From Bacteroidota bacterium (lineage in GTDB: Bacteria; Bacteroidota; Bacteroidia; Chitinophagales; JADJOU01): a DNA stretch of 64,000 bases. Positions 1,965 through 63,657 of the stretch are shown one piece after another. Location of the stretch: assembly GCA_016713645.1 (NCBI GenBank), contig JADJOU010000008.1, positions 43,472 to 107,471 of the forward strand, read 5' to 3'. The number at the start of each line of letters is the position of its first letter. The stretch's first letter is position 1. The notes beneath the pieces were generated by a model. The model was not told the DNA's origin, did not search any database, and was given only the letters and a program-made list of their open reading frames with translations. The position numbers and the translations under genes were made by a program.

Positions 1965-2974
1965 ATGATAAAAATTGGCAATACAGAACTTGGCGAATAC
2001 CCTTATTGCTAGCGCCCATGGAGGATGTCAGTGATCCCCCATTTAGAGCTCAATGCAAAAAGTTCGGGGCCGATATGATGTATACAGAATTCATATCCAC
2101 TGAGGGACTCATGCGAGGCGCCAATAAAAGCATTCAAAAACTAGATATTTACGACTACGAGAGGCCCATTGGAATTCAAATATTCGGCGGGGAACTCGAA
2201 CCGATGATCTATTCTGCCCAAGTCGTAGAAGCTCATCAACCCAATTTACTCGATATCAACTATGGATGCCCTGTGAAAAAAGTCGTCTGTAAAGACGCCG
2301 GCGCAGGGATTCTGAAGAATATCCCCAAAATGATGCAATTGACATCTGCAGTAATTAAGGCGACCACCTTGCCCGTTACTGTAAAAACCCGCTTAGGATG
2401 GGATGAATCAACCATCAATATTGTAGAGGTAGCGGAGCGACTTCAAGACATTGGGGTACAAGCGCTCACCATTCACGCACGAACCAGGGTTCAAATGTAT
2501 AAAGGCGAGGCAGATTGGTCCTGGATTGCTAAAGTAAAAGACAATCCGCGCTTGACCATTCCTGTTTTTGGAAATGGAGATATCGACAGTCCTCAAAAAG
2601 CAAAGAGGTATAAAGAAACTTTTGGAGCCGACGGATTGATGATCGGAAGAGCCGCGATTGGATACCCATGGGTTTTTAGAGAGATCAAAGCCTATCTAGA
2701 TCGAGGAGAAATCATTCCGCCACCCGATATCCATGAGAGAGCTACTGCATGCCGCGAACACCTCACCCACTCGATGGAGTGGAAGGGAGAATCACTGGGT
2801 ATTGTTGAAATGCGCCGACACTATGCCCATTATTTCCGAGGCTATGAAGGAATTAAAGAGTTTAGAATGAGGTTGGTGAATACTATGGATTACCGTGAAT
2901 TGATGAACATTCTCGAAGAAGTTGAATCCCACTACCACGGAAAAGAAGATTTGTTTGCCGATACCGCTATATAG
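1965..2974 (+). pseudogene. dusB: tRNA-dihydrouridine synthase DusB with an N-terminal frameshift (or sequencing error)
   Basis: ORF 2006-2974 carries LAPMEDVSDPPFR and DUS family features. The expected first 13 codons (MIKIGNTELGEYP, ATG at 1965) are in another frame. One extra C in the run at 2000-2002 restores EYPLLLAPMEDV. Confidence 0.85.
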
Positions 2975-2977
2975 TGC

Positions 2978-3610
2978 TTAAATGATATTCGTTTTTCTAT
3001 TTTCTGGTGAAATCTCCTCACAAATACTTAAAAAAGAGTCAATTGGCTTGGGTGACCGCCAAATAGCAGATTGCAATACAAAACCACCAAAACCCAACTT
3101 TTCTGTCTCCTTGATTCTGCTGATATTCACGCCGCCCATAGCATAGACTCGTCGCTCGTCCTTCATGGCATTTAAACGGGTACTATCCACTAACTTAATG
3201 ATATTGTCATTGTAATTTTCTATAAAGACGGGGTAAATAAATACATGTTTGGCTCTTTTATCCAAACTCTCTAATTGAACAATATGCTTCACTTGTGAAA
3301 AAATCCACATGTTAGGGTTTCGCTTTAAAAATGGCTTTAAAACGAATAAATTATAAAAAAAGGCGCCAAATTTTTCTTTTTCGACCAAATATCCCCTCGT
3401 TTTATACTTTTCTGCTAAGTCAGTATAGGTAGCAATAATCAATCTATTGTGGTATTTTGAATCGATAGACAAGATGTATTCCTCCATTTCGCGATGAGTG
3501 AATTTCGGCTTAAACACATACAATAAATCCAAACCATTCTCAAATGCTTTGTGAATTATGTCTAATTCAAAAACAACATTATAGGGGTTTGTAGCAATTG
3601 TCTTTATCAT
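2978..3610 (-). CDS. Thiamine-phosphate synthase (ThiE/TenI)-like family protein
   Basis: 210-aa ORF with a TIM-barrel-like pattern (YAMGGVN..., GFGGFVLQSAIW) that resembles TMP-TENI proteins. The family assignment is from memory only. Confidence 0.45.
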   Translation of the reverse strand: MIKTIATNPYNVVFELDIIHKAFENGLDLLYVFKPKFTHREMEEYILSIDSKYHNRLIIATYTDLAEKYKTRGYLVEKEKFGAFFYNLFVLKPFLKRNPNMWIFSQVKHIVQLESLDKRAKHVFIYPVFIENYNDNIIKLVDSTRLNAMKDERRVYAMGGVNISRIKETEKLGFGGFVLQSAIWRSPKPIDSFLSICEEISPENRKTNII

Positions 3611-3613
3611 CTT

Positions 3614-5263
3614 CTATATCGTCAAATTGTTCTTTTTAGCCGTTTCAATGGCGATTTCATATCCAGCGTCTGCGTGTCGAATAACTCCCATCGCAGGGTC
3701 GTTGTGCAATACCCGTTTGAGTCGCTCTGCTGCATCCACCGTGCCATCTGCCACGATAACCATACCCGCATGGAGCGAATAACCCATGCCAACTCCTCCA
3801 CCGTGATGGAAAGAAACCCAACTAGCGCCGCCTGCAGTATTGATTAAAGCATTGAGTATTGGCCAATCAGCCACAGCATCAGAGCCATCCATCATCGCCT
3901 CTGTCTCTCGATTCGGCGAGGCCACAGATCCAGTATCTAAATGATCTCTTCCTATGACAATCGGCGCTTTCACTTTACCCTCTGCAACCAATTCATTAAA
4001 GGCAAGAGCAGCCCTTTCTCGTTCACCCATTTTCAACCAACATATTCTGGCAGGCAAGCCTTGAAAAGCGATTTTTTCTTTAGCTAGAGTCAACCAGCGA
4101 AGCAAGCCTTTATTTTCTGGGAATAATTCTTTCAATTTCGCATCACAAACAGCAATATCATTTTCATCACCGCTCAGAGCGACAAAACGAAAAGGACCAG
4201 ACCCTTCGCAGAACAGCGGTCTTATATATTCTGGAACAAACCCCGGGAAGTCGAATGCATTCTCTACCCCATGAGCCAGCGCCTGACCTCGGATATTATT
4301 GCCATAATCAAAAGTGATGGCTCCTCTTTTTTGCAATTCAATCATTTGGCGCACTTGTTTGCACATCGTCTCAATCGAACGTTTCCTGTATTCATCCGGA
4401 TTGGCTTCGCGCAGCACATTTGCCTCGACGACCGACATTTTCTCCGGGAAATACCCGATTAATTCATCGTGAGCAGATGTTTGGTCTGTCAAAGTATCCG
4501 GGGTGATATTGCGCTCAATCAAGCGCCCCAATAAATCCACCGCATTGCATACGACACCGATAGAGATGGCCTTTCCCTCTTTAGCATATTGCACAGCTTT
4601 ATCTATGGCGATATCGATATCTTCATACATCTCATCGATATACCGAGTTTCAATTCTCTTTTTAATCCTCCATGCCTCTACATCAGCAGCTAGACAAACT
4701 CCTTCGTTCATGGTAATGGCAAGGGGTTGAGCACCGCCCATGCCGCCGAGTCCCGCAGTAACATTCAGCTTGCCCTTTAAACTTCCATTAAAATGCTTAT
4801 TAGCTAGCGATAAATAGGTCTCATAAGTGCCTTGCACGATTCCCTGCGAACCGATATAAATCCAGGAGCCAGCGGTCATTTGACCATACATCATCAAACC
4901 TTTTTGCTCTAGTTCTGAGAAATGTTCCCAATTGGCCCATTTTCCCACCAAATTTGAATTGGCGATAATCACCCTCGGCGCATGCTTATGCGAGCGCAAG
5001 ATACCGACGGGTTTTCCAGACTGCACCATTAAGGTTTGGTCCTCTTCTAAATTCTGAAGACAAGAGATAATTTTATGATAGGATTCCCAATTTCTGGCAG
5101 CTTTTCCTCTACCTCCATATACAATAAGCTCGTCGGGGCGCTCAGCAACATCTGGGTCGAGATTATTCATCAACATCCGCATTGCTGCTTCTTGCACCCA
5201 TCCCTTGCATGAAATTTTAGCACCGCGCGGTGCCCTTATATTTTTTACAATATTTGATTCCAT
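3614..5263 (-). CDS. hutU: Urocanate hydratase
   Basis: 549-aa ORF with full-length resemblance to HutU ([24 protein letters not shown]). Confidence 0.95.
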
Positions 5264-5265
5264 AA

Positions 5266-5625
5266 TTAGAATGGTAAGTCGTCGGAAATATTATCCATTG
5301 AAGGGGTTGCAATGACCGTATTTTGTCCATTGCTCTCATTTGGTTGACTTCCCTTGCCTGCCTCCGCCAATTCAATTTTCCATCCCCTCACCTCAGTATA
5401 CCATCTATTATTATATTCTCTGCTCTCTAAATCAAAGGATAAATTGACAATATTGCCCTCTTTGATTACATCCATATTGATTTTATCACCCCAGATAGAA
5501 GCACATACTTTTTTAGGGTATTGACCATCTGTCTCTAAAATAAACTCTTGTTTTTTCCATTGTCCGTTTTTTCCTTCCCCCGTAACCAATGGCAGTAGCT
5601 GCACCACTTTCGCTTTTAATTCCAT
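5266..5625 (-). CDS. DUF3127 domain protein
   Basis: 119-aa ORF ([17 protein letters not shown]...YPKKVC...WGDK) matching the small Bacteroidota DUF3127 family. It starts 3 nt upstream of hutU in the same operon. Confidence 0.65.
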
Positions 5626-5714
5626 AACTTATTTAAACTTTTAAAGGGTAAAAATAAGAATCCTTTCCCACATCCCATGCAGAATAATTGACTTATTTGA
5701 ATTTTAACATTTGG

Positions 5715-6078
5715 CTCTTTCTCATTTGACCTTATATCCATCGTTTTTAAATCAAAACACATCCTCTTTAGAGCGCATCAAAGTCTATTTAAAGCAAATC
5801 ACTGATTCTATAAACCTTATCTAGGACTCTTTGACACAAATCCACATATCTTTGGGATTCAACACGCTATCGCTAAAACAAGTCACATTCTCTCCATGAT
5901 TCGACAAGAGTTCTTTGCGGCAGATGATTGGCTCTTTATGACAAGTTGTAAATTCTTTGAAACACAAATTGAACTCTTTGAAAGGTGCTTGCCTATTTCA
6001 ATGACAAAACACCTACTCTTTGGAGCGCAACATACACTGTCTTAGACAGAATTCCTATTCTCTCAAACAAAACACTAT
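5715..6078. repeat. Degenerate 21-bp periodic tandem array (about 15-17 units) with a conserved YTCTTTR core
   Basis: Cores start at 5764, 5827, 5848, 5911, 5932, 5953, 5974 and 6016. All spacings are exact multiples of 21. A second conserved ACA block sits at unit positions 10-12. Confidence 0.8.
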
Positions 6079-6398
6079 TTATATGAATGAAAAAGCCATA
6101 GACATAAACAAAAGAGAATGTGCGCTTCTTAAAAGTGAAGAGGGCGATAACCTTCAAAATAATGACAATCAAAAGCTAGTAATAGAAATCGCTATTGAGA
6201 ATATCAGCCTCTCCTCAACTATAATTGAGATACAGGATACAACTAAATGTGACTCTTTCTTCTTTTCACCCATTCAATTCAAAATTTAATGTCATCATTC
6301 AAATATTCCTTTCGTCTGAGAATCTCACCAATTCTTCTACCTTTACCATGCCCCGTAGGTAATCACGACATATCTATTTGTCTTAAATAAAAATAAAG

Positions 6399-7458
6399 AT
6401 GGAAAACACAACAGTAAAAGCATTCGGAACTCAGGCAGCTACAAAACCGCTCGAACCATTGACCATTCAACGAAGAGGCGTGGCAAACAGAGATGTAAAA
6501 ATCGAAATTGTATATTGCGACGTTTGCCACTCAGATTTGCACACTGCCCGCAATGACTGGGGTGGAACAATCTATCCCGCCGTTCCCGGTCATGAAATTG
6601 TCGGCAAAGTCACTCATATCGGAAATGCCATTACCAAATTTGCCGTGGGCGATATCGTTGGGGTGGGTTGCTTAGTTGATTCTTGCAGAACATGCGATAG
6701 TTGCAAAAAGGATCTAGAGCAATACTGCTTGAATGGTTTTACGGGAACATACAATGGCAAGGACAAACATCTCGGCGGACACACCTTCGGTGGATATTCA
6801 GAAACGGTGGTAGTAGACGAGGATTTTGTATTAAAAATCCCTACCAACCTGCCAATTGCAGCCACAGCTCCCCTACTCTGCGCTGGAATCACCACTTGGT
6901 CACCACTAAAACACTGGAATGTAAAAGCAGGCAGTAAAGTCGCCGTCGTCGGGCTCGGTGGATTGGGGCATATGGCCATCAAACTCGCCAAGGGCTTAGG
7001 AGCTTCCGTAACCTTATTCTCAAGGACAGTAGAAAAAACCAGCGATGCTTTGGCATTGGGCGCAGACCAAGTCATTATATCCACCGATGCCGATCAGATG
7101 AAAGCAGCTAAAGGGAAGTTTGATTTAATCATCGATACCATCCCCTCGATACATGATGTAAACCCCTACATCACGACACTGGGCATAAGCGGCACCTTGG
7201 TTTTGGTAGGCTATTTAGGCAGTCTCGACCCGATGCTCAATTCTGTTCCCCATGATTCTCGGCAGAAAATCTGTCGCAGGCTCTGTAATTGGAGGCATCG
7301 CAGAAACACAAGAAATGCTCGACTTCTGCGGTACACACAATATCGTCTCCGACATTGAAATGATTTCAATGAGTGATATTAATACTGCTTATGAACGAAT
7401 GCTGAAAAGCGATGTGAAATACCGATTTGTAATTGACATGGCTTCGCTTAAGAGTTAG
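6399..7458 (+). pseudogene. Zn-dependent NAD(P) alcohol dehydrogenase (CAD/YahK-like), frameshifted
   Basis: Motifs present: GHEIVGKV, the structural-zinc cysteines CRTCDSCKK, and GLGGLGH. The true C-terminus ([14 protein letters not shown]...YRFVIDM) is in ORF 7252-7458. There is an extra C in the run at 7248-7251. Confidence 0.85.
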
Positions 7459-10558: not shown

Positions 10559-11305
10559 ATGGAAAAGATTAAAGCACTTATTGTAGATGATGAGGAAAGT
10601 GCGAGAAACATTTTATTCAAACTTTTGCAGACTTATCGAAATGATATTGACATTATTGGTCAGTGCGATAATGTGGAACAAGCCGTTTTATTTATCAAAA
10701 ACAACAAGCCCGATCTTGTGTTCTTAGATATTGAAATGCCCAACTACTCTGGCTTGGAGCTTATTCAATTCTTCGATGAAATACCCTTCGACATTATTTT
10801 CATCACGGCTTATCATCAATTCGCCATCAAAGCATTTGAAATTTCTGCATTCGATTATTTGTTAAAGCCCATTGAAATAGCGCGGCTCGACAGCGCCATA
10901 AAAAAATACATCGTCAAAACGCATCAGCAATTAGAAGCGATCAACTACAAAATCTTAAAAGAGAATCTAAGCCAAAACTGTATTTCTAAATTGATTGTAA
11001 GTCAGCAGGGCGGGCAGAAAGCCATATTATTGTCGGACATCATCGCCCTACAAGCAAACGAGGCATATACGACGATCTATGATGCAAATGGGCAGCAATA
11101 CACCATGAGTAAAAATTTAAAGTATTTTGAACAGCAATTCTCCGACAACAAAGATTTCCTTCGTGTACACAAATCTTGGTTAGTCAATGGACAGCACATT
11201 CGGAAATATTCCAGTACTGATTTTTCCATTTATTTGAGTCTAAATATAGAAGCGAAGCTTTCGAAATACAAAAAAGCCGAGTTTGACGCTTGGTATAAAA
11301 GCTAA
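10559..11305 (+). CDS. LytTR-family response regulator (REC + LytTR DNA-binding domain)
   Basis: 248-aa ORF with a receiver domain (ALIVDDE...DLVFLDIEMP) and a C-terminal LytTR pattern (FLRVHKSWLVN). It starts 3 nt after the kinase gene. Confidence 0.9.
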   Translation: MEKIKALIVDDEESARNILFKLLQTYRNDIDIIGQCDNVEQAVLFIKNNKPDLVFLDIEMPNYSGLELIQFFDEIPFDIIFITAYHQFAIKAFEISAFDYLLKPIEIARLDSAIKKYIVKTHQQLEAINYKILKENLSQNCISKLIVSQQGGQKAILLSDIIALQANEAYTTIYDANGQQYTMSKNLKYFEQQFSDNKDFLRVHKSWLVNGQHIRKYSSTDFSIYLSLNIEAKLSKYKKAEFDAWYKS

Positions 11306-11323: not shown

Positions 11324-11356
11324 TCCATTCCTCAAAAAATCAATCCATTCCTCAAA
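11324..11356 (+). promoter_or_regulatory. Putative LytTR operator: two perfect 13-bp direct repeats TCCATTCCTCAAA
   Basis: Copies at 11324-11336 and 11344-11356 (20-bp period). They lie 18 nt after the regulator stop codon and 7 nt upstream of the -33 element. Confidence 0.6.
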
Positions 11357-11419: not shown

Positions 11420-12751
11420 ATGAAACAGATTAAAAAATTAAAACGCATCAGTGTTATTGCGCTAATCAGCTTATTTACAACCAATCTATTTGCGCAAAAA
11501 ATTCAATTCGAAACTATTGAAATTAATTATGGAAACGTCGTAGGTGGAGTAAAAAAGAAAAATGAATTCTTAGTATTCACAGGGCCTACACCATTAACAA
11601 TAAATAGCGGAATCTCTCTTAACAAAGACAATGGTGACTATAAAGGCAAATTAACTTTAATTGGGAATGACAGAAAGGGCAAAAGACTTAGTATTATGAC
11701 GGATATAACTTATAGTGCAACTAGATATAGAAACACGAGCAAGGTAGATATCAAGCCCGAGCAAGACAACGAGATTTATATCAACGAAATAATGATTTCT
11801 GTAACGGACTCAAAAGGCAATACGACATCTGCGACTGAGCCCATCTTTAATGCACGGACCAATACGAGTTTTGCTGTTTTGCTGAATGGCATTTCAAGTG
11901 ATAAATTTTGCGATGAACAAAAACTGAATGCCGTATTTATGAATCAATCCGTTGGTTTCGGAATATTCGCTGTTGTATTGGGATTAAACAATACAAAGAC
12001 GGGTCCCTCGCCAATCGAAAAAGCGATGACTGCAGGAAGAGGAAATGGAATCGGGAGATATGTTTGGACAACTAGTCATGATCAGAGAACAACGAGAATT
12101 GTTGCGCCTACAACAGACAATGCAGGAAACTGGACATTTGAAGACAAAATGCCCATAAAAGATGAAAAAAACCCACCAGTTCTTGAGAGTTTTGAAATGA
12201 TTTATATAACTGCTTGCAATGATACTTACACGTATAAAAGTGTTTTCATGCAAAAGCTAGCTGATATTAAACCATGGGATTATAAAGTAAGAATGGACAA
12301 TGTAATAGCTACAGATAATCCCGTATTCCAAGGTGGAGGTAATGTTATGACGAATGTCTTGGGTTTAACCTTCCCTAGTTCTTCTGTTACAATAACAGGA
12401 GGAAGTATAGCAATCGCTGACCATTCAAAATTCAGTATTGGCTTGAGCAATACCAATGTTGGAAATGGCGGTATCAACTACAAAAAAATCAATGATGTCT
12501 TTATAAACATTCAATTCAAATCAGAAAGCGATAGAGTATTCTATCACTGGGGAAGCGTCGTGTCTACCTCAAACCCAAGAATTGCAATTAACACCGACTC
12601 GCTAAAAATCAAAGATTACACCATTGTAAATGCTGAAATTCGCGTTGTCAACGACAAAAAGATACCCTCGTATATGAGAGCAATGGAAAGTTTGCAACTT
12701 CATTGGATGGAAAACAACCTTTTTATTGTTGGAGAAATCAGAGAAAATTAA
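11420..12751 (+). CDS. Secreted hypothetical protein (signal peptide; no family recognised)
   Basis: 443-aa ORF. The N-terminus (MKQIKKLKRISVIALISLFTTNLFAQ) is a typical Bacteroidota signal peptide. Confidence 0.7.
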   Translation: MKQIKKLKRISVIALISLFTTNLFAQKIQFETIEINYGNVVGGVKKKNEFLVFTGPTPLTINSGISLNKDNGDYKGKLTLIGNDRKGKRLSIMTDITYSATRYRNTSKVDIKPEQDNEIYINEIMISVTDSKGNTTSATEPIFNARTNTSFAVLLNGISSDKFCDEQKLNAVFMNQSVGFGIFAVVLGLNNTKTGPSPIEKAMTAGRGNGIGRYVWTTSHDQRTTRIVAPTTDNAGNWTFEDKMPIKDEKNPPVLESFEMIYITACNDTYTYKSVFMQKLADIKPWDYKVRMDNVIATDNPVFQGGGNVMTNVLGLTFPSSSVTITGGSIAIADHSKFSIGLSNTNVGNGGINYKKINDVFINIQFKSESDRVFYHWGSVVSTSNPRIAINTDSLKIKDYTIVNAEIRVVNDKKIPSYMRAMESLQLHWMENNLFIVGEIREN

Positions 12752-30246: not shown

Positions 30247-30942
30247 TTATTTCAGTAAATACAAGAGGTTATAAAACTCTTTAAACAAAACAGATAGGTC
30301 AACTTTCTTAACGTTGATATCCTGCTTTAACTCCCCATGTATATAACCTATTCTTCTCTTTTGTTTAAATGCTTCTTTTATAAATTCTAAGTCAAACAAA
30401 TATCCATCGATTTTTGTGTTTATTAAAATTTCTTTTCCCATTTTATTCATGCTCTTTAAACCACCCTGCGTATCTGCTGTAGGCAGACGAAACAATAATT
30501 TAATTAGATATTGCACAACCAGAGAAATTATCTTTCTCTGCATTGGAATTGTATCATAATACGTTTTATCGCGGACTGTTATTACTATATCATCCCCTTT
30601 CTCTAATAATTCCAAATGCTCAGCGATATGTTTATTTTCATATGGAATATCACTATCTGTATAGATAATATATTTCCCATTCGCTAAACTTACTCCTTTT
30701 CTAACGGCATTGCCTTTTCCTGCGTTGACCTGATTCTTTGTTCTTACTGTCTTCCATTTTTTGCTTATTCTCTCAAATGCCTCATCCAAGTCATGCATAG
30801 ATCCATCATCAACCAATATAATTTCAATTTCATATTGTTTAGATATGGATTGGTCAATTTTTTCCAAATTTTCCATGACTTTTTTTTCCCATTCGTTTTC
30901 GGGATTATAACAGGGAATTACAATGGAAACTAGCTCTCTCAT
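30247..30942 (-). CDS. Family 2 glycosyltransferase
   Basis: 231-aa ORF with VSIVIPCYNPE, VDDGS and TDSD motifs. Confidence 0.8.
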   Translation of the reverse strand: MRELVSIVIPCYNPENEWEKKVMENLEKIDQSISKQYEIEIILVDDGSMHDLDEAFERISKKWKTVRTKNQVNAGKGNAVRKGVSLANGKYIIYTDSDIPYENKHIAEHLELLEKGDDIVITVRDKTYYDTIPMQRKIISLVVQYLIKLLFRLPTADTQGGLKSMNKMGKEILINTKIDGYLFDLEFIKEAFKQKRRIGYIHGELKQDINVKKVDLSVLFKEFYNLLYLLK

Positions 30943-31378
30943 TTGTTTTCAGTAAATATTTACTTATCCACAGACAATAAATATTTATTGTTTGTAATAA
31001 TATAATAAGTTTTTCTTTTCCACATTATTTTCTCACTTATTCTACAAAATGATTCATTTCATATTTTGATAAATTCTTTTCCTTTTGTTACCCACCCTTA
31101 TGTTCATAAAAAGGACAATATTTTTATGTACATTTTACTTGTACACTTCATGTGAATTAACGCACAAAATAGCCATATTCATTCATTTCCTCCTGTTGAT
31201 TATAAGTTAATAACCCTATAACAAAATGTTAAAATAATAAGAAACAATAGAGGTAATAAAATCTTTCCCACGAATTAACATCCCTAATAATAATGGCTTT
31301 TTTTATTTATTTAAAATAATTAATTATAATTATAATAGCTTGTTAATTCAAGTCGATTTAAATTTCTATTTTTGCATC

Positions 31379-32132
31379 GTGAAACAATTTTTAATTATTC
31401 TTTTTTTATTTTCGGTGGGCATGATTTCGGCACAACAAGAATTCCTTGATGCGCAATTGACCAATGAGCGCGTGGCTATTGCTAATTCTGAAAAGTACAA
31501 ATATTTGGTGGATTTATTTGCTAGTAAAACGGTTGAGTTTCCCTGCGATAGCATTTATTTCCGGGCGATGAAATGGAATAAGAAATTGGAAGTGTGGGCG
31601 TGGAGCAAAGACAGTTCAAAGTATGTTTTAATAAATACATATAATATTTGTATGTTATCTGGTGAGCTGGGACCAAAGCGCGAACAAGGGGATCAACAAA
31701 TACCAGAAGGGTTTTATCAAATTGTAGATTTTAATCCAATGAGTAAATATTTTTTATCCCTGGGAATCAATTATCCAAATGAAAGTGATAAGGTCTTTGG
31801 AACCCAAGGTGCTTTAGGTGGAGATATCTATATCCATGGTGGGTGTGAAACCATCGGTTGTTTGCCGATGACAGATGCCATGATGAAAGAAATTTATCTT
31901 ATTGCGCTTTATGCAAAAAGGCAGTGGTCAGCAAGTAATTCCTGTTCACATTTATCCTACAAAATTAACCAAGAATAATTTTGTAAAATTGAAAGAGAAT
32001 TATTTCAAAGGAAGTACAACGCATATCAATTTTTGGAGTCAGATTAAGCAGGGATATGACTACTTTGAAAAGTATAAAAAATTGCCACGATTTAATATTG
32101 TTGATGGTAACTATTTATTAATCAATGATTAA
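31379..32132 (+). pseudogene. L,D-transpeptidase (YkuD-like) family protein, frameshifted
   Basis: A GTG at 31379 gives the signal peptide MKQFLIILFLFSVGMISAQQ. The catalytic region (IYIHGGCETIGCLPM) is present. The C-terminus continues in ORF 31902-32132. The indel is in the A5 run at 31915-31919. Confidence 0.75.
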
Positions 32133-52134: not shown

Positions 52135-53513
52135 ATGAGAAAACGATTGCTCTTTTTGATAATGACAATGTCTATTATCCTAGTGAATGCTCAAATTAAT
52201 CCAGCCATAAAAGCGTGGTTGCAAAACACGACCATTAAGGGGAAACATTATGTGAAAAACAATTCGACAGCAATTCCCGACACTTCAACAGCAAATGTTC
52301 AGTTGGTAAGATATTCAGCGGATTGGGTATATATAAATACAAATGGTGTACCAGCATATACAACAGGGCCATTTTTAGATAATAACCCGAGTTTGGCAAG
52401 TTCGCAGAATGCCATTTTTAAAGTGTCTTTAAAACCTCAGAAAAATACAGGAGCGCCCATTCCAACAACGGGAGGGAATATTGGATTGTTTATTAATGGG
52501 GTCGCGCTCTTTGATTACCGCGATGGTGTTTCATGGAACAATGCACAATCTAAACTCTGCGGAGGTCCGATTATGTCACTCCTCCAGGAGGTGATGGAAA
52601 ATGGAATCGCGATGCAGTTGTCGGCGAGCGATTGGGTTTTGATTGTTCCAAAGGACACCCCGCTATGGGCAATTATCACCATCATCAAAACCCCAGTGCA
52701 TTTGATATGGATTTGAATGTCACGTCTACAGTATGTTCGCTCTATGATGCAGATGGATTGTATAAAATTGACTCGACTAAGCACTCCCCGCTTATTGGGT
52801 TTGCTTACGATGGTTTTCCAATTTATGGCGCTTATGCATATAAGGATACCAATGGCATGGGTGCGATTGCGCGGATGAAATCTAGCTATGTCTTGAGAAA
52901 TATTACGGTGAGAACACATTGGGCAGATGGCACTGATGTATTGGATGGTCCTCCTGTAGATGCTACTTATCCTTTGGGATATTTTAGAGAGGATTATGAA
53001 TATGTCCCAACAACAAAGACAGATTATTTGGATGCGAGCAACGGACGTTTTTGTAAGACACCAGAATATCCAAACGGCATTTATTGTTATTTCGCGACTG
53101 TGGATGAAAAGTGGAATTCTGCTTATCCCTATGTCGTCGGACCGAATTTCTATGGGGTGAAAACAACAACTAAACCAACCAGTATCACTGAAACAGTAAC
53201 AATTTATGCTGATTCTGTAGCGACTAAGGACACAACAAAATCGTCGGTATTGGTAAATAAGGGGACATCGTTTGCAAATGTTTTCGCAAGTCGCGATGGA
53301 GAATTTGTCGTTATTCAAATCAACGATTTGGTGAAACAAACGATTTATGTAGAGATGTATAGTATGGATGGCAAATTGATTCAAAAGACATCAGTTTTGC
53401 AGGGAAGCACTATTGCTTATATGGATACAAGAACGCTCTACCAAGGGCTGTATATTGTCAAAATCACCAATGGCACGGAGCATGAAGAGCGAAAGGTGTT
53501 TGTGGAGAAATAG
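52135..53513 (+). pseudogene. YHYH-domain protein with a T9SS type A C-terminal domain, frameshifted
   Basis: ORFs 52135-52716 and 52632-53513. The second frame is open back to DYVTPPGGDGKWNRDAVVGERLGFDCSKGHPAMGNYHHHQNP. The indel is near 52566-52570. The C-terminus (IYVEMYSMDGKLI...GLYIVKI) is CTD-like. Confidence 0.75.
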
Positions 53514-61948: not shown

Positions 61949-63523
61949 ATGTCAGCAGTAAAACCAGATGAAATTTCAGCAATCTTGAGAGATCAAATCG
62001 CTCAAGCGTCAACACCCACTCAATTAGAGGAGACAGGAACTGTTCTTCAAGTTGGAGATGGTATTGCGCGTATTTATGGGCTCAACAACGTGAAAGCGGG
62101 AGAGCTTGTTCAATTTGAAAATGGAACACAAGCGATTGCATTGAATCTTGAAGAAGATAATGTAGGAGTTGTATTGATGGGCGCTACCGAGGGAATTAAG
62201 GAAGGCGATAAAGCATTCCGAACTAAGGTAATCGCTTCAATCAAAGTTGGTGAGGGAATGGTTGGCCGTGTAATTAATACATTGGGATTGCCAATCGATG
62301 GAAAAGGACCTATTACAGGAGATGTATATGAAATGCCATTGGAGAGAAAAGCGCCAGGGGTTATCTATCGTCAACCAGTAAATGAGCCTTTGCAAACAGG
62401 TATCAAAGCGATTGATGCGATGATTCCAATTGGAAGAGGACAGAGAGAGTTGATCATCGGAGATAGACAAGTTGGTAAAACAACCGTTGCAATCGATACG
62501 ATTATCAATCAAAAAGAGTTCTTCGAAAAAGGAGAACCAGTATTTTGTATCTATGTTGCTTGCGGACAAAAATCTTCAACGGTTGCGAATATCGTTAGAA
62601 CATTGGAAGATGCAGGTGCGATGAAATATACAGTTGTTGTTGCAGCGAGTTCTGCTGACCCTGCTCCATTGCAATTCTACGCGCCATTTGCGGGTTGTGC
62701 TGTTGGAGAATTCTTCAGAGATACAGGAAGACCAGCTTTGATCGTTTATGATGATTTGTCAAAACAAGCGGTTGCCTATAGAGAGGTGTCATTGTTGTTG
62801 AGAAGACCTCCAGGAAGAGAGGCTTATCCAGGTGACGTATTCTATTTGCACAGTAGATTGTTGGAGAGAGCGGCTAAAGTAAATGCTAACGACAATATCG
62901 CTCAAGCGATGAACGATTTACCAGATTCATTGAAGGGCATGATTAAAGGTGGCGGTTCATTGACTGCCTTGCCAATCATCGAAACACAAGCGGGTGACGT
63001 ATCAGCATATATTCCTACGAACGTAATTTCAATTACAGACGGACAGATATTCTTGGAGTCTAACTTGTTCAACTCGGGTGTGCGTCCAGCGATCAACGTG
63101 GGTATTTCGGTATCGCGTGTGGGAGGAAATGCACAGATCAAAGCGATGAAGAAAGTGGCTGGAACATTGAAATTGGACCAAGCGCAATACAGAGAGCTAG
63201 AGGCATTCTCTAAGTTCGGTTCTGATTTGGATGCTGCTACAAAAGCAGTTTTGGATAAAGGAGCGAGAAACGTGGAAATCTTAAAGCAAAACTTGGGTTC
63301 ACCATTGACAGTTGAAAAGCAAATTGCAATTCTTTACTTAGGTGCAAACAATCTATTGAAAGAAGTTCCAGTTACTAAGATTAGAGCTTTCCAAGATGAT
63401 TTCTTATCGACTTTGGAAAATTCACATGCAGAATTGTTGAGTTCAATCAGCAAAAAAGCAATTGATGAAGTAGCGCCGGCGATAGTAGAGGTAGCGAATA
63501 AAGTAATGCAAGGGTATAAATAA
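61949..63523 (+). CDS. atpA: F0F1 ATP synthase subunit alpha
   Basis: 524-aa ORF with Walker A (GDRQVGKT) and full-length similarity. Confidence 0.97.
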
Positions 63524-63657
63524 TTTTGAATTTTGAATTCTGAATTTTGAATTACAAATTTGGAATTGTCAATTCTTAATTTTGGAATTCTTAATTTTGA
63601 ATTTTGAATTGCATTTTTGGAATTCGGAGTTTTGAATTGAAAGGCAGGGTTTGAAAG
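63524..63657. repeat. Degenerate 7-bp tandem array (TTTTGAA, about 18-19 units)
   Basis: It reads ttttgaa ttttgaa ttctgaa ttttgaa ttacaaa tttggaa ttgtcaa ttcttaa ... and starts immediately after the atpA stop codon. Confidence 0.8.

Follow-up and report, generated by a model that had tools for sequence, protein, structure and literature searches.

Long arrays of short repeats that keep phase with the DNA helix are known mainly from plasmid origins and centromeres, and the promoter architecture and nucleoid proteins of the Bacteroidota are poorly known. Here we describe an array of 16 head-to-tail 21-bp units, all in one orientation and in exact register, which occupies positions 5743 to 6078 (336 bp) of a 64,000-nucleotide stretch from the genome of a Bacteroidota bacterium (assembly GCA_016713645.1, contig JADJOU010000008.1, positions 43,472 to 107,471 of the forward strand), hereafter the window. 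The array lies in the intergenic region between the divergently transcribed DUF3127-hutU operon and a gene for a zinc-type alcohol dehydrogenase (ADH). It is genuine and lineage-restricted, and none of the feature classes considered here fully explains it. To establish a context for the array, a brief comparison with the closest described systems is given first.

The iterons of plasmids and phages, exemplified by the seven 22-bp repeats of R6K and the bent four-iteron origin of phage lambda, consist of 3-7 near-identical repeats next to a rep gene, together with an AT-rich region and DnaA boxes. The array shares with them the tandem, same-orientation repeats of about 20-22 bp, and the potential for binding on one face and for bending of the DNA. 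Unlike iterons, however, its units are only 45% identical, are present in 16 copies, have no rep gene nearby and show no similarity to plasmids or phages. A second class comprises the centromere-like arrays bound by ribbon-helix-helix proteins, such as parC of R1 and pSK41 and the heptad arrays of the omega protein. Here the likeness is in contiguous head-to-tail repeats in exact register with a small open reading frame (ORF) following the array, and in centromeres such repeats support a cooperative protein-DNA superstructure. In contrast, the repeats described here are far more degenerate, and the 68-aa ORF downstream is an orphan with an unconvincing fold. No ParM, ParA or ParR gene was found within 6 kb on either side of the array. 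Around the array lie DUF3127, hutU, ADH and a two-component system, with no replication or partition gene among them. A replication origin at the array was also considered and rejected, as the cumulative GC skew of the window has its minimum at about 31 kb and DnaA-box matches, found elsewhere in the window, form no cluster at the array. Given the lack of replication and partition genes nearby and the position of the skew minimum, membership in either the iteron or the centromere class fails.

Two further classes deserve comparison. Classical curved elements upstream of bacterial promoters contain 3-6 tracts of A5-6 over 30-60 bp. In the array, T3 and A3-4 runs likewise recur in helix phase and a static bend is predicted, but it extends over 336 bp and has additional conserved C residues (positions 3, 11 and 16 of the unit) that curvature alone does not explain. 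Multi-repeat sites of response regulators such as ArcA, which uses 2-5 repeats at 11-bp spacing, are similar in their variable repeat number, common orientation and helical phasing, and by analogy the tolerance of weak sites through cooperativity might apply here as well; the array differs in having 16 units and a 21-bp spacing. Taken by analogy, then, the array would resemble iteron, centromere and multi-repeat regulator arrays in its mode of action, while it lacks the defining features of each.

Register and anatomy of the array

The core array follows the consensus nTCTTTrrrrCAaAwCACnnn on the + strand, with a mean pairwise unit identity of 45%, as judged from the register, counts at each position, information content and autocorrelation. 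The initial annotation had listed eight YTCTTTR cores separated by exact multiples of 21 bp. Seven of these are exact (5764, 5827, 5911, 5932, 5953, 5974 and 6016), and the one at 5848 is a near match, ATCTTTG; the spacings are all multiples of 21 bp as claimed, and cutting the region into 21-mers from 5764 gives the same register. The + strand of the window has 50 occurrences of YTCTTTR, and seven were seen within 259 bp where 0.18 would be expected (Poisson P = 9e-10, a value that does not count the additional factor of (1/21)^6 for the register shared by the seven cores). A chance origin of the core clustering is thus excluded.

The autocorrelation check that had been proposed for the region gave a clear outcome: against 1000 dinucleotide shuffles of 5764-6078, z was 6.9 at lag 21, 8.3 at lag 42 and 6.7 at lag 63, with nothing at lags 3, 7 or 14. 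Over lags 5-79, no other sequence in the 64-kb window gives a periodic signal as strong. When each unit was scored with a profile built from the others, all 16, from 5743 to 6058, were placed best at offset 0 among the 21 possible offsets. The same procedure defines the edges. The region had been thought to begin at 5715, a start that we do not retain, since the unit-like sequence there is out of register (best offset -7), as is the one at 5693. On the right, a weak 17th unit, TTATATGAATGAAAAAGCCAT (6079-6099, + strand), is in register with a leave-one-out score of 1.7 and a best offset of 0; it shares 13 of 21 bases with the unit at 6058 and overlaps the start of the orphan ORF. The 14-mer CTCTTTRGAGCGCA, reported as common to the units at 5764 and 6016, is indeed present in both, and the second block, described as ACA/GCA at unit positions 10-12, was borne out, 13 of the 17 units having C at position 11. 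The unusual length of the intergenic gap was likewise confirmed, at 773 bp (5626-6398) compared with the 770 bp claimed.

Tandem Repeats Finder, at a minimum score of 30, reported zero rows at the array, because the mean unit identity is only 45%. An ordinary tandem repeat of the minisatellite type, which needs copies at least about 70% alike, was rejected on these same two grounds. Nor is the array an assembly artefact, since its left third is also present, in the same register as in the window, in an independent metagenome contig (GCA_020051655.1, hereafter L001) that is 93% identical in DNA sequence over window positions 2967-5881. The periodic signal is therefore genuine, and it resides at the level of DNA.

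Conservation within the unit is concentrated in two short blocks, TCTTT (positions 2-6) and C-A-n-A-n-C (positions 11-16). The T residues are kept in 16/16 units at position 2, 15/16 at position 4 and 14/16 at position 6, whereas positions 19-21 are random across units. The units differ among themselves at 55% of positions, yet no insertion or deletion has broken the phase. The variance of conservation per position is 8.8, compared with 3.6 under uniform decay from a single ancestral unit, and was reached by 0/5000 simulations; the null takes the history of the units to be star-like, and common descent among them would raise the variance somewhat. Such a coexistence of invariant and fully randomised positions, as read from the sequence, would be hard to obtain without selection on particular positions. 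The centres of the two blocks are about 9.5 bp apart, about one helical turn, and an imperfect dyad, TTTG-N3-CAAA, spans positions 4-7 and 11-14. Because 21 bp corresponds to two helical turns, all blocks are presented on one side of the helix. Apart from a slight preference for every second one, the units show little higher-order organisation.

Coding and transcript-level interpretations

One alternative, to which we give little credence, is that the array is the pseudogene of a heptad-repeat protein. The initial annotation had proposed a minus-strand relic with the pattern x-V/I-F/I-C-x-K-E, a version that is not supported, given the stops in frame, the uniform codons (P = about 4.3e-5) and the lack of a corresponding gene in relatives. 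The in-frame stops noted in that register are real, although they number six over 5743-6078 and not five. The best candidate is instead + frame 1, with the pattern [L/F/I/V]-F-x-[A/T]-x-H-x: over about 129 codons it meets only 2 stops, hydrophobic residues fill the first heptad column in 17/17 units through varied NTN codons, and the TGA stop at window position 5803 is TTA in L001. In the consensus, four of the six frames are free of stops, and this makes heptad-like translations look attractive; such a translation is in itself no evidence of a former gene.

Against a coding origin, the best frame has no start codon, the sequence of the array has no 3-bp periodicity, and stops occur in every frame (2-11). 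Between the window and L001, the ratio of nonsynonymous to synonymous divergence (pN/pS) is 0.87 in + frame 1 and 0.5-2.5 over the six frames, indicating no purifying selection; the flanking genes, compared in the same way, have pN of 0-0.014 and pS of 0.20-0.25, for a pN/pS of about 0.02-0.05. Moreover, the codons at the conserved columns are too uniform for the codon usage of the genome in all six frames (Fisher-combined P of about 4.5e-5 to 1.3e-7, the latter in + frame 1); for example, ACA is used 7/7 times, compared with 33% of Thr codons in the genome, and TCT 11/12 times, compared with 25% of Ser codons. Sites that would be synonymous are no less conserved than the others, whichever of the six frames is read. 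This uniformity in all frames, found while positions 19-21 are saturated, shows that nucleotides and not amino acids are conserved. The GC skew of the + strand at the array, -0.26, also departs from the mean of +0.07 for coding strands in the window.

Database searches gave a similar picture. Pfam and NCBIfam had zero matches to any stop-free piece of the six frames, and a HMMER search with the 79-aa piece of + frame 1 against 1.84 billion protein representatives returned a single match, a 2092-aa eukaryotic repeat protein (P0121) that was judged spurious and unrelated to the array translation. It had been anticipated that relatives might carry an intact ordinary gene here, exposing the array as decay debris; in the relatives examined no such gene was found at the syntenic site, which is occupied by unrelated non-coding sequence. 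The pseudogene interpretation is therefore largely refuted.

The array might alternatively be transcribed, as a long leader or a non-coding RNA whose CUCUUU/AAAGAG repeats titrate an RNA-binding protein. It is upstream of ADH on the same strand, and protein-sponge RNAs typically carry repeated short motifs. We nevertheless consider this very improbable: Rfam has no match at the gathering score and only chance-level matches at E up to 10, predicted folding is no better than that of shuffles on either strand (z = +1.06 and -0.20), single-stranded RNA binding gives no reason for an exact 21-nt register, and ADH has its own conserved proximal upstream region. A scan for sigma-70 promoters and terminators found no more than in shuffles, and the hairpin at 6037-6049 falls inside a unit. 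The array is neither coding nor a structured RNA but a DNA-level element.

Predicted curvature, candidate binding proteins and turnover

In a wedge model of the 336-bp array, with approximate parameters after Bolshoy and colleagues and a helical repeat of 10.56 bp, the ratio of end-to-end distance to contour length is 0.52. Every one of the 425 tiles into which the window was cut has a higher ratio (mean 0.87, minimum 0.56), as do 500/500 shuffles, so that the array is predicted to be the most curved segment of the window. The power of AA/TT dinucleotides at 10.5 bp also puts the array in the top 1% of tiles. As 21 bp is 1.99 turns at 10.56 bp, the bends of the individual units add up. Part of the curvature follows automatically from any 21-bp periodicity; the ratio is, however, lower than that of 97.6% of column-permuted arrays, and the motif thus adds curvature beyond that due to periodicity alone.

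The interpretation that fits the evidence best, and better than a coding relic, is that of a functional phased array for docking or curvature, made up of redundant weak sites; we assign it a probability of roughly 0.4. It develops the proposal, already made in the initial annotation, of a phased protein-binding array, for which the exact register, the nucleotide-level blocks one turn apart and the predicted curvature all speak. According to this proposal, the array would be a homotypic cluster whose docking sites are weak and redundant. A protein would bind them side by side along one face, or wrap the DNA, aided by the predicted intrinsic curvature of the phased T- and A-runs, and the bound array would determine how the 773 bp between the divergent DUF3127-hutU and ADH promoters are organised. 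The periodicity and exact register, the conservation of nucleotides at particular unit positions, the non-coding status, the confinement to a single lineage and the rapid turnover are shown here, and we infer from them the binding of a protein, its identity and an effect on the flanking promoters. Redundancy among the sites would account for near-neutral drift of individual units alongside a persistent register and motif.

Several findings weigh against a functional array, in addition to the approximate wedge parameters and the share of curvature that any 21-bp period would produce. Orthologous units in the window and L001 differ at 26/126 sites (0.21), as much as DUF3127, hutU and the next gene differ at synonymous sites (0.20-0.25), and the divergence of the array is 3.5 times that of the region upstream of DUF3127, where only 5/85 sites differ. 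The core positions changed less often than the others (7/48 vs 19/78), but not significantly so (P = 0.26). The array is absent in relatives whose DUF3127 proteins are 94% and 90% identical, and is therefore dispensable for the flanking genes. Finally, a search for a second copy of the unit array, which had been recommended at the outset, found none in the window or in 1.2 Mb of related loci. Evolution at the synonymous rate, together with the absence from the next relatives, speaks against a function in the present day.

Few relatives of the host have been sequenced, and among 185,579 species genomes the most similar DUF3127 protein is 61% identical. None of these DUF3127 relatives on genome contigs (<= 61% identity) has the array. 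The window and L001 are distinguished by two changes, which are gains and losses of whole units with phase and total length kept; the window units at 5764 and 5785 pair with L001 units one step to the right, leaving one partnerless unit in each genome. A synteny search of metagenome contigs gave one close relative, which lacks the array. Among the more distant relatives, all without the array, L284 (DUF3127 94% identical, pS 0.53) has the first ~130 nt upstream of DUF3127 in common with the window and then diverges, while L285, L287 and L082 (DUF3127 90% identical) have about 85 nt in common, followed by unrelated sequence for at least 430 bp. In L285 and L287 this unrelated sequence, from the equivalent of window position 5711 onward, carries short repeats of the type ATTGCG(G/A)A. 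The intergenic spot upstream of DUF3127 seems to be a hotspot for sequence replacement. On the ADH side, L164, whose ADH protein is 90% identical, is homologous from its contig start, which aligns to window position 6273; other ADH homologues are not syntenic, or are on contigs too short to reach the array. Since the promoter-proximal regions are conserved on both sides, the array is situated inside a lineage-specific segment. Positions 19-21 are saturated and the split from L284 amounts to only about 0.5 substitutions per site, which makes a simple recent amplification of one unit in place unlikely. We infer that the array either is older and was lost elsewhere or arrived already diverged.

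A search with blastn against plasmid and phage records found no match to the array. A scan of viral contigs for four phased cores found at least 119 loci, all of them unrelated, near-perfect tandem repeats, and nothing matching the array was found in the literature on 21-bp phased repeats. Locus L070, from a Bacteroidales metagenome-assembled genome (MAG), has at 4100-4420 a 42-bp unit with an internal dyad (…GCATTGCAAGTTTATGCAATAG…) that is repeated cleanly in tandem about 8 times, some 1.5 kb upstream of a DUF3127 homologue; the repeat is unrelated in sequence to the array.

In a second interpretation, the array is the non-functional relic of a once-constrained 21-bp DNA-level array, now decaying and without effect on the flanking genes. 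Such a relic could have originated by local amplification, or could have been imported with the iteron- or centromere-like array of a lost mobile element. Divergence from L001 at the synonymous rate, the gain and loss of whole units, the nearest relatives with unrelated sequence at the same spot in place of the array, the adjacent orphan ORF without support as a gene, and the core positions without significant protection are all as a relic would predict. However, both the pattern of conservation by position and the perfect register can still be seen clearly. Full randomisation of positions 19-21 with the register intact implies a long history from which insertions and deletions were excluded, whereas pure neutrality, given typical bacterial ratios of indels to substitutions, should have given phase-breaking indels. 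There is also no plasmid or phage similarity and no replication or partition gene nearby. On balance we regard a relic as possible but rather unlikely.

A candidate for the protein that would occupy a functional array is encoded nearby. A receiver-LytTR response regulator (10559-11305) lies downstream of ADH, beside a sensor with Reg_prop, Y_Y_Y and His_kinase domains, and the array might be a multi-site target of this regulator, whose gene is 4.5 kb downstream; this is a special case of the functional array, and an improbable one. The regulator and its sensor are close to the array, but Bacteroidota genomes encode many LytTR regulators, so that proximity of one is weak evidence. The repeats in LytTR sites are 9 bp in length and conform to the family consensus [TA][AC][CA]GTTN[AG][TG] (WMMGTTNRK), and known sites are repeat pairs a few bp upstream of the -35 element. 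Like the array, LytTR sites of the AgrA, ComE and HdrR/BrsR type have a short conserved core and consist of direct repeats in the same orientation whose starts are about 21 bp apart. The two repeats are mostly 12 bp apart, and sometimes 11 or 13 (PMC6193735). From 9-bp repeats and spacers of 11-13 bp, a LytTR period of 20-22 bp follows, and the array period of exactly 21 bp agrees with this start-to-start spacing. Unlike LytTR sites, the array has a second conserved block inside the would-be spacer, and it comprises 16 units over 336 bp and not one promoter-proximal pair. WMMGTTNRK has 42 matches in the window and 0 between 5700 and 6100.

The regulator probably has a binding site of its own: the sequence TCCATTCCTCAAA occurs twice, as a perfect 13-bp direct repeat with a 20-bp period, at 11324-11356, between the LytTR gene and the ORF at 11420-12751. 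A 9-bp core profile of the array matches this putative site weakly, through TTTGAG, in the top 0.6% of random windows, a rank that is inflated because the site is itself a repeat. As a candidate site the direct repeat is better than the array; it fails the 18-position profile of the array unit and has only TTTGAG in common with it. The LytTR regulator is accordingly a lead, not a match.

At its most far-reaching, the functional interpretation would make the array a living, recently evolved nucleoprotein scaffold, in which the 16 redundant one-face sites nucleate a cooperative filament or wrapped complex of a Bacteroidota DNA-binding protein, possibly the neighbouring LytTR regulator, that jointly controls both divergent promoters; the array itself would be maintained by birth and death of whole units and not by conservation of single sites. 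We consider this version speculative and distinctly unlikely; if true, the scaffold would be a chromosomal analogue of plasmid iteron or centromere arrays, seen early in its evolution. More generally, if the array is functional, it would represent a chromosomal case, in the Bacteroidota, of a long, highly degenerate, helically phased repeat array, and of regulatory DNA kept by register and motif density and not by sequence identity. If it is a relic, it shows that non-coding bacterial DNA can retain a strong periodicity in which particular positions are conserved. None of the standard tools, namely Tandem Repeats Finder, Rfam, ORF callers and BLAST, detects the array.

Flanking genes and other features of the window

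The gene for the DUF3127 protein (5266-5625, - strand; Pfam PF11325, E = 4e-30) is the first of the DUF3127-hutU operon, and its start is about 118 bp from the first unit of the array. No structure of a DUF3127 protein was found in the PDB. Its upstream region (5626-5710, - strand) is outside the array and marks the array boundary; 80/85 bases are identical to L001, the region is also kept in L284 and in L285/L287, and it presumably comprises the DUF3127 promoter and leader. Within it, at 5692-5709, the sequence TTATTTGAATTTTAACA is kept in all four lineages and is out of register with the array. It agrees with the array unit at about 10-11/17 positions, with a profile score of 8.9 for the L284 copy, and on this resemblance could have been the seed or model of the unit. 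Between this region and the array is a left edge zone (5711-5742, + strand), with CTCTTTC at 5715 out of register. In an alignment with L001, L284 and L287 the zone is partly homologous in L284, and it therefore predates the array or marks its edge.

On the other side, directly after the array, is the orphan 68-aa ORF (6083-6289, + strand), in + frame 2, which differs from the best array frame. It has zero Pfam or NCBIfam matches, the only database entry it matches is its own, listed as a hypothetical protein from a Bacteroidetes MAG, and its AlphaFold2 model, with a mean predicted local distance difference test (pLDDT) score of 47, is uninformative. The ORF is probably not a real gene. The upstream region of ADH (6273-6398, + strand) is conserved in L164 and forms the right limit of the lineage-specific segment; the last unit of the array ends about 320 bp before the start of ADH.

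Two candidate junctions around the array were examined and dismissed. An 18-nt imperfect inverted repeat, 5694-5711/6288-6305 (15/18 complementary), brackets the array and the orphan ORF, and the region has 3 such pairs, compared with 0.28 in simple shuffles, made of A-rich and T-rich patches whose pairs cross and are not nested. An invertible segment or a miniature inverted-repeat transposable element (MITE) was rejected in view of the chance quality of the repeat for an AT-rich region, the crossing pairs and the left arm kept in relatives without the array, and the inverted repeat is probably due to chance. A direct repeat, 5709-5727/6247-6265, was rejected as an insertion junction because the homology with L284 continues past it.

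The ADH gene itself (6399-7458, + strand), assigned by Pfam, seems to be frameshifted by 1 bp at a CCCC run near 7249, and in tblastn the homologue P0001 (90% identical) switches frame at 7249/7250. Further apparent frameshifts split the sensor kinase (7692-9512/9431-10555) and give overlapping ORF pairs at 399-628 and 52632-52716. This pattern suggests homopolymer indel errors of a long-read assembly and not pseudogenes; the register of the array is unaffected.

Two other sites in the window may be mentioned. At 30940-31400, an AT-rich gap (GC 0.32 in 30-32 kb) coincides with the cumulative GC-skew minimum; at 30964 it has TTATCCACA, which matches the DnaA box perfectly, and at 31016 TTTTCCACA. 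On sequence features the gap might be a replication origin, but DnaA-box matches are not enriched in the window as a whole (21 vs 18.5 expected). The window's second periodic signal (lags 7, 14, 21 and onward) comes from 63524-63640, where about 16 degenerate heptamers (TTTTGAA/AATTTTG) directly follow the stop of the ORF at 61949-63523 and end about 30 nt before a gene for a TIGR02436 four-helix-bundle protein (ORF from 63673; E = 6e-29).

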